From assembly GCF_054482525.1 (NCBI RefSeq), contig NZ_JBTHVG010000005.1: a stretch of DNA of 4,049 bases. One strand, 5' to 3'. Position 1 is the first letter of the stretch. Each line of letters begins with the position of its first letter. Both the position numbers and the translations under genes were made by a program. Positions 1-4,049 of this stretch are shown in pieces. Source of the DNA: a plasmid. A model generated the notes under the pieces. That model ran no database searches. It was not told the DNA's origin and was given only the letters and a program-made list of their open reading frames with translations.

Positions 1-126
1 AACAGGAAGGATGCGTCAGGATCGTTTTCAGCTCGCTGCATAGCTATGCATGAAAGCGAATGGTGATCACTTTGGGAGCTTACGGTGTTCATACCGTCTG
101 TTTTCGACAGTTTTCTCTCCGGGAAG

Positions 127-474
127 CTAATCTGCCATAAGCCTGGATAACAGGGCACGGTGATACTCCGTAATAGCGATCAGCACCTCCGCATACTCCC
201 TGTCCCCGACACGCTTGCCGTCGATAAAGAGTTTTTTCTGTAACGCCCCCAGTCTCATAACTTCTTTCAGTACCCGATCATCAGTCAGTGAGTTAACTTT
301 CTTACCGAGAGCTGCCGCCCGTAAAAAACCGGAAACGGTCTTGCCGCATTCAGCAGCCCTTTTTCTGATTTCCTGGTCTTCTTCTGCCGTCAGACGAACA
401 GGGCGACTGATAGCCCGCCTGCGCGTATTACTTCCACTTCGTTTTGTCATAAAACATGGCTCCGTATCTGACAT
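127..474 (-). CDS. mobC: MobC-family plasmid mobilisation (relaxosome accessory) protein
   Basis: 115-aa ORF whose core (RLTAEEDQEIRKRAAECGKTVSGFLRAAALGKK...) resembles the MobC/MbeC family of small relaxosome proteins. It reads away from the adjacent bom/oriT-like sequence. An alternative start at M9 (ATG at 450) is preceded by GGAG at about 9 nt spacing and may be the true start. Confidence 0.8.
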   Translation of the reverse strand: MSDTEPCFMTKRSGSNTRRRAISRPVRLTAEEDQEIRKRAAECGKTVSGFLRAAALGKKVNSLTDDRVLKEVMRLGALQKKLFIDGKRVGDREYAEVLIAITEYHRALLSRLMAD

Positions 475-560
475 GGGTGTCGGGGCAAAGCCCTGACCAG
501 GGCAATTGTAATAGCGTGCATGTATGCGCGGTATAACAATTGCACATCCTGTCCTGTCAG
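475..560. other. bom/oriT-like transfer origin region (ColE1 type), nick position not determined
   Basis: Begins GGGTGTCGGGGC, which matches my recollection of the pBR322/ColE1 bom region, followed by the hairpin GCCCTG-acc-CAGGGC (~489-502) and the imperfect inverted repeat GCAATTGTAATA...TATAACAATTGC (~502-543). Lies immediately upstream of mobC. By analogy to the ColE1 nic region the nick would fall near 531/532, but this is not verified. Confidence 0.55.
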
Positions 561-733
561 CAAGCTCGAATTACCGACAAAGGCACGGCAGTTTTTTGGC
601 AGTGACAGTGTTGTCTGACAGAAATGCCCGTCAAAAAGCCAAGCGGCAGAATAGCGGCAGCAAAACAGTCGAAAAGTGGTACGCGATATAATCACACAAC
701 GCAGATGACAGACAGAACGGAGAAAACGAAAAG

Positions 734-928
734 ATGAACAAGCAGCAGCAAGCCGTACTCAACATGGCGGGATTCATAAAAAGTCAGAGCCTGACGCTGC
801 TCGAAAAACTGGACGCACTCAATGCCGACGAACAGGCCGCCATGTGTGAGAAACTGCACGAACTCGCAGAAGAACTCCAGAACAGCATACAGACACGCTT
901 TGAAGCGGAAAATCTTACCGGGATATAA
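734..928 (+). CDS. rop: Rop/Rom (RNA one modulator) protein, copy-number control
   Basis: 64-aa ORF MNKQQQAVLNMAGFIKSQSLTLLEKLDALNADEQAAMCEKLHELAEELQ... closely parallels ColE1/pMB1 Rop (recalled as MTKQEKTALNMARFIRSQTLTLLEKLNELDADEQADICESLH...). A GGAG Shine-Dalgarno lies about 8-13 nt upstream of the ATG (acggagaaaacgaaaagATG). Confidence 0.9.
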   Translation: MNKQQQAVLNMAGFIKSQSLTLLEKLDALNADEQAAMCEKLHELAEELQNSIQTRFEAENLTGI

Positions 929-1544
929 CGCATCCGGACAGGATGCAGAACGGCATAGAGGAGCGTAAGGAGAAAATGTCACATAAGGCGCTCTTCCGCT
1001 TCCTCGCTCACTGACTCGCTACGCTCGGTCGTTCGACTGCGGCGAGCGGTGTCAGCTCACTCAAAGGCGGTAATACGGTTATCCACAGAATCGGGGGATA
1101 AAACCGGAAAGAACATGTGAGCAAAAGACAAAGACCCAGAAGAAGGGCGCGCGGGAGGCGTTTTTCCATAGGCTCCGCCCCCCTGACGAGCATCACAAAA
1201 ATCGACGCTCAAGTCAGAGGTGGCGAAACCCGACAGGACTTAAAGATACCAGGCGTTTCCCCCTGGAAGCTCCCTCGTGCGCTCTCCTGTTCCGACCCTG
1301 CCGCTTACCGGATACCTGTCCGCCTTTCTCCCTTCGGGAAGCGTGGCGCTTTCTCATAGCTCACGCTGTTGGTATCTCGGCCCGGTGTAGGTCGTTCGCT
1401 CCAAGCTGGACTGTATGCACGAACCCCCCGTTCAGTCCGACCGCTGCGCCTTATCCGGTAACTATCGACTTGAATCCAAACCGAGAAGACACGACTTATC
1501 GCCACTGGCAGCAGCCACTGGTAACCGAATTAGAGGAGTTAGCC

Positions 1545-1574
1545 TTGAAGTCATGCGCCTGTTAAGGCTAAACT
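1545..1574 (+). promoter_or_regulatory. RNA I promoter (-35 TTGAAG, -10-like TAAACT)
   Basis: TTGAAG at 1545-1550 and TAAACT at 1569-1574, placed as in the pMB1 RNA I promoter relative to the RNA I 5' end. Confidence 0.6.
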
Positions 1575-1580
1575 GAAAGA

Positions 1581-1685
1581 ACAAGTTTTGGTGACTGCGC
1601 TCCTCCAAGCCAGTTACCTCGGCTCAAAGAGTTGGTAGCTCTGAGAACCTTCGAAAAACCGCCCTGCAAGGCGGTTTTTTCGTTT
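1581..1685 (+). ncRNA. RNAI: RNA I antisense copy-number control RNA
   Basis: ACAAGTTTTGGTGACTGCGCTCCTCCAAGCCAGTTACCTCGGCTCAAAGAGTTGGTAGCTCTGAGAACC...GCGGTTTTTTCGTTT parallels ColE1-family RNA I (pMB1: ACAGTATTTGGTATCTGCGCTCTGCTGAAGCCAGTTACCTTCGG...). It ends in a GC hairpin plus T-run. Confidence 0.85.
1656..1685 (+). terminator. RNA I intrinsic terminator (hairpin plus T-run)
   Basis: aaaaaCCGCCctgcaaGGCGGttttttcgttt: GC-rich stem CCGCC/GGCGG followed by six T. Confidence 0.7.
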
Positions 1686-1695
1686 ACACAGCAAG

Positions 1696-1724
1696 AGATT
1701 ACGACGAGATAGAAAGGATCTCAA
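1696..1724 (-). promoter_or_regulatory. RNA II promoter (-35 TTGAGA, -10 TAATCT)
   Basis: Minus strand reads cTTGAGAtcctttctatctcgtcgTAATCTc with a 17-nt spacer, closely matching the pMB1 RNA II promoter. Confidence 0.7.
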
Positions 1725-1763
1725 GTTCTCATATCATAAAAACAAGCTGACACATCCACGATG

Positions 1764-1967
1764 TTATACCTTTTGAATCGCTACAGCTTTAAACCCTTTA
1801 TCTGTTTTTTCTAATTTAAACCTAACTAAAATACCTTTACATATATCGACATCATGCCCTAAAAACAAAAAATCATCATACCGAAAGAAAACATCACGTC
1901 CACGCTCACGCCTTATAAAGCCATACCCTTTAACATGGTCATAAAAATTAACAAATCCATTTTCCAT
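1764..1967 (-). CDS. Cold-shock-domain (CspA-like) small nucleic-acid-binding protein; candidate retron effector/accessory protein
   Basis: Core GFVNFYDHVKGYGFIRRERGRDVFFRYDDF aligns to the CspA fold (GxVKWFNxxKGFGFI...DVFVHF) with RNP1-like KGYGFI and RNP2-like VFFRY. The ATG at 1967 lies 4 nt after the RT stop (TGA 1972-1974) and is preceded by AGGTGA, indicating translational coupling. The longest ORF extends to an upstream ATG at 2021 (85 aa) overlapping the RT 3' end; the true start is uncertain. Confidence 0.8.
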   Translation of the reverse strand: MENGFVNFYDHVKGYGFIRRERGRDVFFRYDDFLFLGHDVDICKGILVRFKLEKTDKGFKAVAIQKV

Positions 1968-1971
1968 ATAA

Positions 1972-3111
1972 TCACCTATCTGGAAGTAATGCCACGAGCT
2001 TACGTCTATATAGTTTTGCAAGATTCTTATTAGTCCGCCCTACTATATCAAAATCATAGAGCATCCTATCTATTTTCCTAATCTGATCATCAGTTAAAGG
2101 CGGCGTAAACTTATTTAGATAGTGCTTAGCCATCAACTTTAATTTAGATATCTTGTAATCATCATAAACTGGCATTATCTCAGAAAGAATCGCCCTCAAT
2201 TCAACCGCCTGGACATGCCCAAGCCTCGACATTTGAGCAACCTTGCCAGAGCATCTATTCCATAAATCATGGTACTCTTTCGTATGACGTTCATAAGCAC
2301 CTTGTTTTTTACATATATAAACTAAGTACCTGATATAACGTCTATTTTCTTTTGTTAACTTAGGAACACCATGCTTTACCCACAACCCAGTGACACTAAG
2401 TTTAGAAGACGAATCTTTTGAGTGCTCTATCGTTGTCTTACTTTCATTTATTGAAAGTCTGTACTGATTCACCATTCCGTGAACGAGTTTTATTACTTTT
2501 GTTTTTTCCTCTGATGAAAGATCCTTATCAGAGGATATAGTAATATCATCTAAAAGCCTTGAATATGAAAGCCCCATAGACTTCAATCTATTATAGAGAT
2601 TATACTCACTATTAAAAAATAAAAGATTTGCAATATAACTAGAACAGCACCCACCCTGAGGGACCTTATTATTCAACGTCACAAGTTCCGTTAAGCATAA
2701 AGAAACATCAGGAGAAAAACGCATTAAATTTTTAAAAATAGAACAAACATCTTTTTTACTAATGCTGGGATAAAAATTGGTGATATCAAGACATATAACT
2801 GTTCTTTTCCTAGTATGAACAGCGGCATTAGATATATAATCGCGACCACTTAACGCCCCATGCAAATAATGAGGGTAATCAATTTTCTCAAAAATCTCTT
2901 TATTTATTTTTTTTTGAATTCCTTTCAAAGATCTCTTGGGTTCAAAAATTTGCCTTTCTTTTTTATTCTTCCCTGTTTCAACCTTAAACTGCTTGTACGA
3001 CATCGATACAGACTTGACTATCCAGTCCAATCTTTTTCTTTCTATGCCTAACATCGCAGATAAAGAATCCAAAGATGCAACAGGAGTTCCATTAAACCTG
3101 GGTTTATTCAT
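1972..3111 (-). CDS. Retron-type reverse transcriptase
   Basis: 379-aa ORF with RT motifs in order: NAxxH-like SNAAVH (res 95-99), motif A CLDITNFYPSI (catalytic D109), motif B VPQGGCCSSYIANLLF, motif C YSRLLDDITIS (D188, D189) and VTG (res 240-242). It aligns motif by motif with retron Ec86 RT as I recall it (IDLEDFFPSL / LPQGAPSSPKLANL / YTRYADDLTLS / RKVTGLVI). The ATG lies 7 nt after the a2 repeat. Confidence 0.9.
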   Translation of the reverse strand: MNKPRFNGTPVASLDSLSAMLGIERKRLDWIVKSVSMSYKQFKVETGKNKKERQIFEPKRSLKGIQKKINKEIFEKIDYPHYLHGALSGRDYISNAAVHTRKRTVICLDITNFYPSISKKDVCSIFKNLMRFSPDVSLCLTELVTLNNKVPQGGCCSSYIANLLFFNSEYNLYNRLKSMGLSYSRLLDDITISSDKDLSSEEKTKVIKLVHGMVNQYRLSINESKTTIEHSKDSSSKLSVTGLWVKHGVPKLTKENRRYIRYLVYICKKQGAYERHTKEYHDLWNRCSGKVAQMSRLGHVQAVELRAILSEIMPVYDDYKISKLKLMAKHYLNKFTPPLTDDQIRKIDRMLYDFDIVGRTNKNLAKLYRRKLVALLPDR

Positions 3112-3118
3112 GATGTTT

Positions 3119-3401
3119 GAGTTAAAAGTCGATTAGTTAAAAAGTTTCGATACGTAATCTATTACTTTAAACATAATCAAGCACATAGAAAACAAAAACT
3201 GTGTTTTTTTCAGTGCCTCCAGAGAGCCAACCTCTCTTTTTTTCTTCATCTGACCGTCTCCAGAACAAGATGAAGAGCTCTTGGTTACGTTAATGTTGAT
3301 GTTGATAATAAACATGATGCAACTCCTATTGGTTATGAAATTTTGCCAGACCAGTAGGAAAGCAAGGAAAAACTCTATTGGCTCTTTGGGACTTTTAACT
3401 C
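3119..3401 (-). ncRNA. Candidate retron msr/msd non-coding RNA bounded by a1/a2 inverted repeats
   Basis: Perfect 12-bp inverted repeat: plus-strand gagttaaaagtc at 3119-3130 and gacttttaactc at 3390-3401. On the minus strand this gives 5'-GAGTTAAAAGTC (a1) ... about 260 nt ... GACTTTTAACTC (a2), then 7 nt, then the RT ATG. Internal hairpins include CTTCATCT-n16-AGATGAAG, AGAGAG-gttgg-CTCTCT and AAAAAC-aca-GTTTTT. Exact msr/msd boundaries and the priming G are not determined. Confidence 0.6.
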
Positions 3402-3684
3402 ACATTGCCAGACAATCGTCGCTATTCTTTTAGTGCTGATACACGCTCAGGGGCGTTCTCACCATTAATTAGCGGCCAGGCCGGTCATGATCTCATGCGA
3501 GATCGCCTTAAAAACAAGGCATCGGTTTCCTTGCGCAACATACACGTAACCATTTGTTAAAGAGCGAGAGCCAGGCGTGGTTCGCCCGCTTCGCTGATTA
3601 TTATAAAGTTTTTTATCTTTCTGTCACCAACAAGAAAGCGCCTTATCCTGCCAGCGATAGGCTAAAAGGTATGCAGCATGAGAT

Positions 3685-3921
3685 TCAAATCAACTCAGCT
3701 ACAAAGGCCATAACAACAATCCCAACCTCAGCATCGGCACTCAGGATAATTTTTGAACTAGCATCTCTTAAATTCTGACCGTCAAAGGTTGCTACTTTTT
3801 TTAAAGAGGCATCCCTTAAAACCTTGCCATCAAAAGTCGCTATTTTTCTCGAAAAGGCATCTCTTAAGGTTTTACCGTCAAACCGAGCAACGGTTTTTAA
3901 GTCATTGTTTTTATTGAAATA
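3685..3921 (-). pseudogene. Open frame encoding 16-aa tandem protein repeats with a hydrophobic C-terminus; no canonical start codon, so a possible decayed gene or non-canonical initiation
   Basis: Minus-strand frame from the TAA at 3922-3924 to the TGA at 3685-3687 translates to YFNKNNDLKTVARFDGKTLRDAFSRKIATFDGKVLRDASLKKVATFDGQNLRDASSKIILSADAEVGIVVMAFVAELI*. Differences between repeat copies are largely synonymous third-position changes (GCT/GCG/GCA, GAC/GAT, GGT/GGC, AGA/AGG, AAA/AAG). No ATG, GTG or TTG precedes the repeats; the nearest ATG (3903-3905) is offset by 1 nt and gives M-T-stop. Confidence 0.3.
3761..3904. repeat. Three tandem, diverged 48-bp direct repeats
   Basis: Units at 3761-3808, 3809-3856 and 3857-3904 each begin GCATC(T/C)CTTAA and share an (A/G)CC(G/A)TCAAA block and a T-run; identity is roughly 65-75%. 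Confidence 0.85.
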
Positions 3922-3955
3922 TTAATTTCTCACCAATAGTAATTTAACCAATTGT

Positions 3956-3985
3956 ATTTACCATAATCCCTTAATTGTACGCACC
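3956..3985 (-). other. cer: cer-type XerC/XerD site-specific recombination core (plasmid multimer resolution site; accessory arm extends toward and past the window end)
   Basis: Minus strand reads GGTGCGTACAA-TTAAGGGA-TTATGGTAAAT, matching the ColE1 cer core (XerC arm, 8-bp central region, XerD arm) as I recall it. Accessory sequences would lie on the XerC side at 3986-4049 and beyond. Confidence 0.8.
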
Positions 3986-4049
3986 GCTGAAACGCGCTGA
4001 ACGCGATTCTGACGCAGACACCGCAAAAAGAGATGTTTTACCCCGGGAA

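Follow-up and report, generated by a model that had tools for sequence, protein, structure and literature searches.

The window, by which we mean the whole 4,049-nt stretch of DNA analyzed here, is, as judged from its sequence, an entire plasmid of the ColE1 type, about 4.05 kb long, that carries a known type V retron, Se72 (Retron-Sen1). The following features were identified.

127..474, minus strand: mobA, NikA-like mobilization protein (NCBIfam NF041264, 112.7 bits versus 80)
734..928, plus strand: rop (Rom), modulator of RNA I/RNA II pairing (Pfam Rop PF01815, 104.9 bits versus 25)
1135..1688, minus strand: RNA II pre-primer and ColE1 origin block (homology; predicted stem-loops 1 to 3)
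1583..1683, plus strand: RNA I, antisense copy-number regulator (Rfam RF00106, 94.6 bits versus a gathering score of 47, E = 1.3e-17)
1696..1724, minus strand: RNA II (primer) promoter, read directly from the sequence
1725..1726, no strand: left boundary of the cargo with the replicon, 1 nt upstream of the RNA II −35
1725..1763, minus strand: 39-nt gap between the stop codon of the cold-shock-domain (CSD) gene and the RNA II −35 (alignment)
1738..1789, minus strand: weak terminator-like element (RNA folding)
1764..1967, minus strand: retron Se72-family effector, a 67-aa CSD protein (NCBIfam NF038236 and Pfam CSD)
1972..3111, minus strand: retron reverse transcriptase (RT), 379 aa (Pfam RVT_1, 57.7 bits versus 29.6)
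3133..3315, minus strand: 60-aa ORF between the ncRNA and the RT (ORF list)
3280..3599, minus strand: putative retron ncRNA region, approximate (inverted repeat and multi-lineage alignment)
3600..3627, minus strand: near-consensus sigma-70 retron promoter, GTGACA-16-TATAAT (11 of 12 matches)
3685..3951, minus strand: extra cargo ORF with 15-aa tandem repeats, VATFDGKxLRDAS.. (translations compared)
3956..3985, minus strand: cer (XerCD) recombination core, GGTGCGTACAA-TTAAGGGA-TTATGGTAAAT (exact match)

The features of a ColE1-type replicon were present, namely, RNA I, an oppositely oriented RNA II promoter past the 3' end of RNA I, the homologous origin block after it, Rop, and cer. RNA I lies on the plus strand, which places RNA II on the minus strand, and the 3' hairpin of RNA I is a strong terminator (AACCGCCCTGCAAGGCGGTT followed by a T-run; −10.6 kcal/mol over 20 nt). 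The hexamers and spacing of the RNA II promoter were intact (−35 TTGAGA at 1724-1719, a 17-nt spacer, and −10 TAATCT at 1701-1696), and CTTGAGATCC...CGTCGTA(A/G)TCTCTTG in the promoter block was invariant among the aligned relatives. Transcription of RNA II would start at about 1688-1687, with the 3' end and origin placed approximately, some 555 nt from the start, by analogy with ColE1. Positions 949-1725 were homologous to more than 5000 ColE1 plasmid records, and this homology suggests that replication here depends on DNA polymerase I and is primed by RNA II after processing by RNase H. The mobilization protein also gave a Pfam NikA-like match (66 bits). The exact match to the cer core had an expectation of 0 by chance, and the sequence at 3956-3985 is that of the ColE1 cer core.

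Outside this backbone, the plasmid carries the Se72 retron promoter, putative ncRNA, RT, and CSD effector, together with one extra ORF. The retron promoter was the best promoter-like site in the window, 1.9 kb upstream of the RNA II promoter, and it was kept 516 to 524 nt upstream of the RT start in L003, L024, L025, and L027 (592 nt in L029). Promoter-like sites as a whole showed no excess (9 found versus 6.6 ± 2.7 in shuffles), and those near the junction, at 1710-1737 on the plus strand and at 1902-1875 and 2051-2023 on the minus strand, each matched at 9 of 12 positions. The putative ncRNA region is flanked by a 17-nt inverted repeat (3282-3298/3536-3552), and its 5' part (ACGGGCGAAC...AAGGCGATCTC) was conserved across lineages; a search of Rfam returned no family matching this region. 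The 60-aa ORF contains a perfect 9-bp hairpin (3243-3251/3268-3276), and a gene of 61 to 62 aa was called at the matching place in L023-L029; it is probably the "hairpin-containing ORF" described for Se72 (PMC6868368). The RT was 99 to 100% identical to the annotated RTs of retron Se72 plasmids, and its best NCBIfam matches were retron RT families, all beneath their cut-offs. The CSD gene begins 4 nt past the RT stop codon and is also annotated by PGAP in identical plasmids. Its product matched retron_eff_Se72 (NF038236; 85.2 bits versus a cut-off of 82) and Pfam PF00313 (33.4 versus 27), with CspD and the antiterminator CspE as the next-best families, both under cut-off. Type V retrons carry a small CSD effector (67 to 86 aa) directly downstream of the RT (PMC7736814), and the passages on this class in PMC7736814 and PMC6868368 equate the CSD effector type with plasmid-borne Retron-Sen1 (Se72). 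For the Salmonella Se72 plasmid, a 72-nt reverse-transcribed DNA and phage resistance are reported in the relevant passage of PMC6868368. For the extra repeat ORF, the annotations of L004 and L020 give a hypothetical protein, and a weak, subthreshold Pfam Bflower_2 match was obtained; in the window, this ORF is interrupted by an in-frame TAA at 3924-3922.

The window was 98 to 99% identical to plasmids annotated with the retron Se72 effector. A Retron-Sen1 (Se72) plasmid of Salmonella Enteritidis, 4,053 bp in length, was reportedly described by Rychlik et al. in 2001, and Mestre et al. in 2020 are said to have defined the type V class that covers this retron. Like that plasmid, ours is a ColE1-type plasmid of about 4.05 kb with a retron RT, a CSD protein, and a small hairpin-containing ORF, and it differs in the in-frame stop of the repeat ORF; size, gene content, and family assignment, rather than an alignment of the sequences, lead us to infer that the two plasmids are the same.

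The limits of the cargo were defined by comparison with retron-less plasmids, as the initial annotation had suggested. Homology to two retron-less siblings, L002 and L014, stopped at 1725 in BLAST searches and resumed at 3956, so that the backbone 3956..4049+1..1725 was shared at 94 to 99.7% identity, while the slot between the two junctions held different genes in these siblings. In 59 retron-less ColE1 rows, drawn as part of a spread sample of about 5000 ColE1 matches, 40 stopped exactly at 1725 and none reached past 1735. These comparisons place the insertion junctions at 1725|1726 and 3955|3956, the latter being the outer XerD-arm edge of the cer core, and they delimit a cargo slot at 1726-3955 with the RNA II −35 and the cer/Xer core (3956-3985) as its fixed edges. 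The block 1726-3955 has 36% GC, compared with 50 to 54% for the backbone. This difference, together with the presence or absence of the block in an otherwise near-identical backbone, identifies it as a horizontally acquired island, in agreement with the earlier proposal, and its AT-rich composition reflects foreign cargo.

A maximum-likelihood change point was found at 1674 (support interval, 1667-1708), where GC content drops from 55.7% to 34.3%, with a log-likelihood ratio of 43 versus at most 9.5 in 200 shuffles; the right-hand change was weak (log-likelihood ratio of 8 to 9). Thus, the sharp shift noted in the initial annotation was real, but it does not begin at 1764, since the homology junction lies at 1725|1726, and the AT-rich block does not end near 3400, since the cargo runs to 3955, up to the cer core. 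The compositional break itself sits within the AT-rich RNA II promoter region. Its position inside the promoter and RNA II 5' region, and not at a gene end, is what would be expected if the step were a chance fluctuation or mere promoter AT-richness and not foreign DNA. However, chance does not account for a ratio of 43 against a shuffle maximum of 9.5, promoter AT-richness does not account for 36% GC across the entire 1726-3955 block, and the slot is polymorphic for presence and absence among sibling plasmids. The GC statistics and the sibling comparison thus already refute this reading, and we give it practically no weight.

The mosaic agrees with that described for ColE1 plasmids by Ares-Arroyo et al. 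(2018), in which the conserved region starts at RNA II and has 51.7 to 59.4% GC and the variable region has 32.4 to 52.5% (PMC5864857). The window fits this pattern, with 36% cargo, a 50 to 54% backbone, and a conserved block starting from RNA II; in contrast to that work, the edges are given here at single-nucleotide resolution (1725|1726 at the −35, 3955|3956 at the cer XerD arm). We found no mention of retrons in PMC5864857. Small ColE1 plasmids are known to exchange cargo that is bounded by Xer/cer sites (Tran et al. 2012, as cited in the relevant part of PMC8683028), and one cargo edge here likewise falls exactly at the cer XerD arm. In contrast, the left edge had no second Xer-like site within 1726-1763 with up to 2 mismatches allowed. 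Cargo exchange between two Xer sites was therefore rejected for lack of an Xer half-site at this edge, where the conserved origin homology simply stops.

The CSD gene ends with the stop codon TAA at 1766-1764 on the minus strand, codirectional with RNA II and 39 nt from the −35, in line with the roughly 40 bp estimated earlier. By our own count from the alignment with the Klebsiella lineage, the promoter-proximal 18 nt of the gap (TTTT.ATGA.ATGA...) were 78% conserved, compared with about 24% for the distal 21 nt. This conservation upstream of the −35 between two lineages hints at an UP-like element or the tail of a terminator. A consensus scan (GC-rich stem of at least 5 bp, loop of 3 to 8 nt, U-tract directly after) found no canonical terminator on the minus strand from the retron promoter (3600) to 1725. 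The initial annotation had seen no hairpin with a U-tract between the CSD gene and the −35; this holds for canonical terminators, but RNA folding revealed an imperfect 46-nt hairpin at 1789-1744, with arms AAGCUG/CAGCUU, which encloses the CSD stop codon and is followed by G1743 and U5 (1742-1738). The predicted hairpin had an energy of −12.0 kcal/mol (−0.26 kcal/mol per nt), a stem probability of about 0.98 in the nascent-RNA ensemble, and a z-score of −1.6 versus shuffles, 15 of 200 of which folded equally well. An analogous hairpin was found in L003 (−13.7 kcal/mol), and in the Klebsiella lineage it ends in a U-run (z = −2.5); none comparable was found in L024 or L025. Rho-dependent termination was judged unlikely by the rule of thumb that rut-like transcripts are C-rich and G-poor, as the transcript across 2000-1683 is G-rich and C-poor (C/G ratio, 0.19 to 0.76).

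The layout therefore provides the basis for read-through that the initial annotation had proposed: same strand, a 39-nt gap, no canonical terminator, and a conserved promoter 1.9 kb upstream. The retron operon runs in the direction of both RNA II and replication, and over the 39 nt between its end and the −35 nothing but the weak, noncanonical hairpin with its U5 intervenes. A fraction of the RNA polymerases that initiate at the near-consensus retron promoter therefore probably read on across the RNA II promoter, which would yield 5'-extended RNA II-like transcripts that also bear the RNA I target. If this flux were appreciable, a modest rise in copy number would be expected, since pre-primer would be more abundant, RNA I would be titrated, and the convergent RNA I promoter would suffer interference. 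The predicted RNA II fold kept stem-loops 1 to 3 with leaders of 40 to 80 nt; longer leaders altered the minimum-free-energy fold, and we give such unreliable long-range predictions little weight. Our main reading, to which we assign a probability of roughly 0.7, is that 1690-1770 spans the point where the conserved replication core of ColE1 meets an exchangeable cargo slot and that some retron read-through, plausible from the sequence layout, crosses it incidentally. We infer in this way that read-through occurs, that it acts in the direction given above, and that it matters little.

The RNA II promoter is intact and self-sufficient, and a plasmid variant separates it from the retron, so read-through is not required for replication. 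In this variant (NZ_CP039839.1, whose record is short and linear, with the transposon ends collapsed), the retron is parted from the RNA II promoter by an insertion of the Tn3 family that has 5 bp duplicated at 1764-1768, and the plasmid is presumably viable. A reading of this record as the retron in another backbone, with the match stopping exactly at 1764, was rejected; the record represents the same plasmid, interrupted by the transposon.

The arrangement was also compared with that of related plasmids. In 9 of 11 informative retron-less ColE1 plasmids, for which PLSDB annotation is incomplete, the nearest annotated upstream gene was codirectional with RNA II, with gaps of 43 to 819 nt, and a clear terminator before the RNA II promoter was present in only some relatives (L008 and L016). 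Thus, a codirectional upstream gene, often lacking a terminator, appears from these sequences to be a common compact ColE1 layout and not special to this plasmid, so that read-through is, most likely, a side effect that the plasmid tolerates and not a circuit dedicated to control. The same orientation occurs in pBR322/pMB1 vectors, where the upstream gene (bla in pBR322) is codirectional with RNA II. The RNA II promoter hexamers of the window match the pMB1/pBR322 primer promoter and, with their 17-nt spacing, are identical to those of pBR322. In pBR322, a transposon end and the bla terminator lie between bla and the RNA II promoter, whereas the window has only the weak hairpin and U5 there. 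As a classical rule, strong-promoter or unterminated transcription disturbs ColE1 replication (Stueber and Bujard 1982, as summarized in passages of PMC3061898 and PMC6565834), although the experiments summarized there reportedly used promoter positions other than the one here. Nothing specific on read-through into the RNA II promoter was found in the secondary descriptions covered.

Among ColE1 retron plasmids, the order RT-CSD-RNA II promoter was kept without a canonical terminator in four lineages, with RT identity down to 72% and spacers of 38, 38, 62, and 84 nt, and all four kept the near-consensus retron promoter. This order and the conserved promoter are new here, while the GC mosaic of conserved and variable ColE1 regions and the Se72 retron plasmid were already known. 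Retention in four lineages could mean that the coupling was selected and is not incidental, in which case the operon would be deliberately unterminated and retron expression would set or modulate copy number, with read-through serving as extra pre-primer or an RNA I sponge or occluding the RNA II promoter. The CSD effector might even help polymerase to pass the weak hairpin, given that CspD and the antiterminator CspE are its next-best families, albeit below cut-off. In Rep-type plasmids, moreover, the CSD gene and a convergent rep gene overlap at their 3' ends, so that there, too, retron transcription is directed into the replication module. Against this, most of the sampled retron-less ColE1 plasmids share both the orientation and the absence of a terminator, neither the length nor the sequence of the spacer is conserved, the RNA II promoter is intact, and the Tn3 insertion variant exists. 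Furthermore, the four retron lineages co-diverge with their origins (origin identity, 77 to 83%), which points to one ancestral linkage and not four independent events. On balance, we consider deliberate coupling unlikely. Still more doubtful is the broader idea that Se72-like retrons on small plasmids are wired into replication control, tuning copy number and defence dosage: in ColE1 hosts, the unterminated operon would feed 5'-extended RNA II and RNA I-titrating transcripts, in Rep-type hosts it would enter the overlapping rep gene in the antisense direction, and the CspE-like effector would possibly melt the weak hairpin.

The opposite possibility is that the hairpin at 1789-1744 with the G-U5 at 1743-1738 works as an intrinsic terminator and that essentially no read-through occurs. 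Judging from the folding model, this element could terminate a sizeable fraction of transcripts: the hairpin is predicted to form in the nascent-RNA ensemble with a probability near 0.98, a single nucleotide separates it from U5, its Klebsiella analogue (z = −2.5) ends in a U-run and has one stem pair changed from A-U to G-C, and the T-run and the sequence beyond it are conserved between two lineages. However, hairpin and U5 together fall short of a canonical terminator, as the 46-nt structure has internal loops, an AU-rich stem base, and five U residues only, and its −0.26 kcal/mol per nt compares with −0.5 for the RNA I and L016 terminators. A z-score of −1.6, matched or exceeded by 15 of 200 shuffles, and the lack of an equivalent hairpin in L024 and L025 also argue against efficient insulation, which we regard as improbable. 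Compared with these alternatives, incidental read-through at the core/cargo boundary remains the reading that we prefer.

In large part, these results redescribe the standard conserved/variable boundary of ColE1 plasmids on an already characterized retron plasmid, and their practical value lies in a nucleotide-precise map of the cargo slot, from the RNA II −35 to the cer XerD arm, and in a simple testable prediction. Substantial read-through would mean that a defence element acts directly on the copy number of its own plasmid and, with it, on its own dosage and the plasmid burden; this would be a neat case of cross-talk between cargo and backbone and would be relevant for cloning retrons with native flanks on ColE1 vectors.

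Two of the ColE1 retron lineages were added by protein-based look-ups. A contig scan with the conserved upstream motif TTTTNATGAWATGANNNCTTGAGATCC returned two contigs only, both of the same lineage and probably contaminants of unrelated assemblies, and no further lineages. The retron Se72 plasmid was present in 25 of 5426 complete E. coli genomes.

The window is a complete small ColE1-type plasmid of 4049 bases. On database comparison, it showed 98 to 99% full-length identity to plasmids of approximately 4.05 kb from E. coli, Salmonella, and Shigella, which are annotated with a reverse transcriptase (RT), a "retron Se72 family effector protein," MobA, and Rop. Its main features were the following.

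Features of the plasmid
127-474, minus strand: MobA/NikA-like protein (family scan)
734-928, plus strand: Rop (Pfam, 104.9 bits)
1583-1683, plus strand: RNA I (Rfam, 94.6 bits)
1724-1719 (TTGAGA), 17 nt, 1701-1696 (TAATCT), minus strand: RNA II promoter, read from the sequence
1764-1967, minus strand: 67-aa cold-shock-domain (CSD) protein (NCBIfam Se72 effector, 85.2 bits, above the cutoff of 82 bits)
1972-3111, minus strand: retron RT (RVT_1, 57.7 bits)

Since Rfam places RNA I on the plus strand, the primer RNA II must be on the minus strand. According to the literature, the system is Retron-Sen1 (Se72), a plasmid-borne type V retron with the CSD protein as its hallmark (PMC6868368; PMC7736814). 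The junction region was found at 100% identity in 25 of 5,426 complete E. coli genomes.

The sharp change in base composition described in the initial annotation was borne out: maximum likelihood over positions 1000 to 3100 placed a GC change point at 1674 (support interval, 1667 to 1708), with 55.7% GC to the left versus 34.3% to the right and a log-likelihood ratio of 43 versus at most 9.5 in 200 shuffles. However, the limit of about 3400 proposed for the AT-rich block is not a real boundary, as the GC change there was weak (log-likelihood ratio, 8 to 9); the block at 3685 to 3955 again had 36% GC. The comparison with retron-less relatives that had been proposed defined the junctions at 1725 and 3956. 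Two such siblings, L002 (NZ_CP011435.1; 2,677 bp) and L014 (NZ_CP151309.1; 2,690 bp), have the backbone 3956 to 4049 plus 1 to 1725 in common with the window at 94 to 99.7% identity and hold unrelated genes at the position of the retron cargo, between identical end points, which places the cargo, as judged by alignment, at 1726 to 3955 and not from 1764 onward as first thought. On the left, a single nucleotide separates the junction from the RNA II -35 element downstream. Homology ended exactly at 1725 in 40 of 59 retron-less rows, drawn from a spread sample of the 5,000 best plasmid matches to 1560 to 1860, and extended past 1735 in none (0/59); the left edge at the -35 element is a property of the whole family, beyond this backbone. 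An exact ColE1 cer XerC/XerD core, GGTGCGTACAA-TTAAGGGA-TTATGGTAAAT, lies at 3956 to 3985 on the minus strand, and the outer edge of its XerD arm is the right junction (3955/3956). Thus, the slot is bounded by cer on one side and by the RNA II -35 element on the other; no Xer-like half-site was found at the left cargo edge. ColE1 plasmids combine a conserved region from RNA II (51.7 to 59.4% GC) with a variable region (32.4 to 52.5% GC) (Ares-Arroyo et al., PMC5864857), and the AT-rich island beside the RNA II promoter is this known mosaic. Identity to L002 was also mosaic, at 99.7% over mob-rop (1 to 948) and only 91.7% over the origin block (949 to 1725), which implies that recombination took place with a breakpoint between these two regions and suggests joint inheritance of the origin and the retron as one segment.

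The best promoter-like site of the window, GTGACA-16-TATAAT (11/12; 3627 to 3600, minus strand), is conserved in five other lineages, lying 516 to 524 nt upstream of the RT start codon in L003, L024, L025, and L027 and 592 nt upstream in L029. Being near consensus and conserved, this promoter is probably strong and would fire in the direction of the RNA II promoter, at a distance of 1.9 kb. Downstream of it, a highly conserved transcribed block (approximately 3480 to 3595, minus strand), ACGGGCGAAC..GGCTCT.GCTC.TTTAAAAAATGGT.ACG...AAGGAAACCGATGCCTT..AAGGCGATCTC, is common to the same five lineages and L005, down to approximately 60% RT identity. The block is presumably the type V retron ncRNA, with no matching Rfam family; an inverted repeat was found at 3282 to 3298 and 3536 to 3552. 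The codirectional order RT-CSD-RNA II promoter was kept in all four ColE1-borne lineages and, because their origins diverged in step with the retron (77 to 83% identity), is one old linkage and not four independent events. More distant relatives are carried by small Rep-type plasmids (from Hafnia, Edwardsiella, and metagenomic contigs), in which the Se72-like CSD gene and a convergent replication initiator gene, rep, overlap at their 3' ends by 4 to 12 nt (3862 to 3873 in L005, 519 to 522 in L006, 3225 to 3230 in L027, and 2306 to 2314 in L029); this leaves no room for a terminator, and convergent transcription into rep would be expected.

As noted initially, the CSD gene ends near the RNA II -35 element on the same strand: the stop codon (1766 to 1764) and the -35 element (1724 to 1719) are both on the minus strand, with a 39-nt gap. 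The accompanying statement that no hairpin plus U-tract lies between them held only in part. A consensus scan of the minus strand from the retron promoter to the RNA II promoter gave no terminator-like site, but a weak, imperfect 46-nt hairpin (1789 to 1744, minus strand; arms AAGCUG/CAGCUU), with the CSD stop codon inside it, directly precedes G1743 and five U residues at 1742 to 1738. In the Klebsiella lineage (L003, NZ_CP149830.1; 81% DNA identity and 85% RT identity), a spacer of equal length carries an analogous hairpin (-13.7 kcal/mol; z = -2.5) that ends in a U-run, with one A-U stem pair replaced by G-C. The metagenome lineages L023/L024 (RT 78% identical) and L025/L026 (72%) have nonhomologous spacers of 62 and 84 nt, in which no comparable hairpin plus U-run was found. 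From 2000 to 1683, the transcript-sense strand is rich in G and poor in C (C/G, 0.19 to 0.76) and, by rule of thumb only, does not resemble a site of Rho loading. Overall, a canonical terminator is absent from all four lineages, two of which have a weak one at best.

Among 11 retron-less ColE1 plasmids with an annotated neighbor (orientation taken from match strands), the nearest upstream gene was codirectional with RNA II in 9, with gaps of 43 to 819 nt, and divergent in 2. The gap between this gene and RNA II contained a clear terminator in L008 and L016; L011 had only a marginal one, inside the gene, and the scan of the same gap gave none in L002, L013, L015, and L019. A terminator-less codirectional layout is not very unusual. 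Additionally, a natural variant of the window plasmid, L001 (NZ_CP039839.1), carries a Tn3-family element at 1764 to 1768, exactly where the CSD gene stops, which has duplicated a 5-bp target (TTATA), as expected of such an element, and parts the retron from the promoter of RNA II. The transposon was called from its terminal inverted repeat, GGGGTCTGACGCTCAGTGGAACG, with ends at 1 to 245 and 4400 to 4656. This insertion indicates that the retron and the RNA II promoter need not be contiguous, as read from a short, linear record that holds the transposon ends only.

In ColE1 control, the ratio of RNA II to RNA I sets the initiation frequency. We infer that some of the polymerases that start at the retron promoter would pass the weak hairpin and its five U residues and transcribe through the RNA II promoter, yielding read-through RNA II molecules with long 5' leaders. 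In predicted folds, RNA II stem-loops 1 to 3, the RNA I target, were unchanged with leaders of 40 to 80 nt, so extended transcripts should retain RNA I binding and could mature into primer as well. By the ColE1 control logic, the copy number would be raised by extra RNA II-like transcripts, by RNA I titration, and by collisions with the RNA I promoter, which is convergent. If the RNA II promoter were occluded, native transcripts would only be exchanged for extended ones. A modest positive effect on copy number is therefore predicted if the flux is appreciable.

We regard such read-through as probably a tolerated by-product of a compact plasmid (probability, roughly 0.7), which we rate above its rivals given the intact RNA II promoter, the frequency of this layout among relatives, and the insertion variant L001. 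These observations also argue against a selected coupling of retron transcription to replication, which we consider unlikely; a genuine link between type V retrons and the control of plasmid replication seems more doubtful still. Efficient termination between the retron and the RNA II promoter would fit the predicted energy of the 46-nt hairpin (-12.0 kcal/mol) and its stem probability of approximately 0.98 in the nascent-RNA ensemble, but the hairpin reaches only -0.26 kcal/mol per nucleotide, versus approximately -0.5 for the RNA I terminator and the clear terminator of another ColE1 plasmid, with a z-score against shuffles of -1.6, and termination of this kind is likewise improbable.

Already known are the plasmid and its retron (Rychlik 2001, via PMC6868368; type V in PMC7736814) and the classical rule that unterminated transcription can disturb ColE1 replication (Stueber and Bujard 1982, as cited in PMC3061898 and PMC6565834); a literature search gave nothing specific on read-through into RNA II. 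No new kind of system is established. What is added here is a nucleotide-level map of the slot from the RNA II -35 element to the cer XerD arm, the weak hairpin with its U-run, which the initial annotation overlooked, and evidence that the layout, with its lack of a terminator, and the near-consensus retron promoter are both conserved across lineages.

Public annotations label a 53-aa ORF inside the RNA II/origin block (1415 to 1576, plus strand) a "replication initiation protein," with equivalents in L002 (451 to 612), L008 (1006 to 1167), and L014 (1200 to 1361). To our knowledge, ColE1 replication needs no plasmid-encoded initiator, and for this reason the label looks like a propagated misannotation. 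Near-identical copies of the plasmid appeared in an "uncultured Oscillospiraceae" MAG (L021, CAUABB010000120.1) and in a 340-bp, very-low-coverage contig of a Bacillus wiedmannii assembly (L022, NZ_LOBC01000087.1); these occurrences of an enterobacterial plasmid are most likely contamination or misbinning. These two contigs, of the same lineage as the window, were the only ones returned by a scan of genome contigs with a conserved DNA motif, which added no further lineage.

Directly upstream of the RT, a 60- to 62-aa ORF was called at the same position in every lineage (3133 to 3315, minus strand, in the window; 2794 to 2979 in L023, 1716 to 1901 in L024, 1321 to 1506 in L025, 1675 to 1860 in L027, and 735 to 923 in L029). 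The window's putative ORF contains a perfect 9-bp hairpin (3243 to 3251 and 3268 to 3276) and could correspond to the "hairpin-containing ORF / alternative msr" reported for Se72. Another cargo ORF, absent from the Klebsiella lineage, consists of 15-aa tandem repeats (VATFDGKxLRDASLKK), with three repeats in the window (3685 to 3951, minus strand) and in L004 (3491 to 3757) and five in L020 (NZ_CP099355.1; 2645 to 2983). Its sole family match was a weak, subthreshold one to a "5-fold beta-flower" family, and the N terminus found in relatives is disrupted in the window by an in-frame TAA (3924 to 3922) and a shortened A-run.
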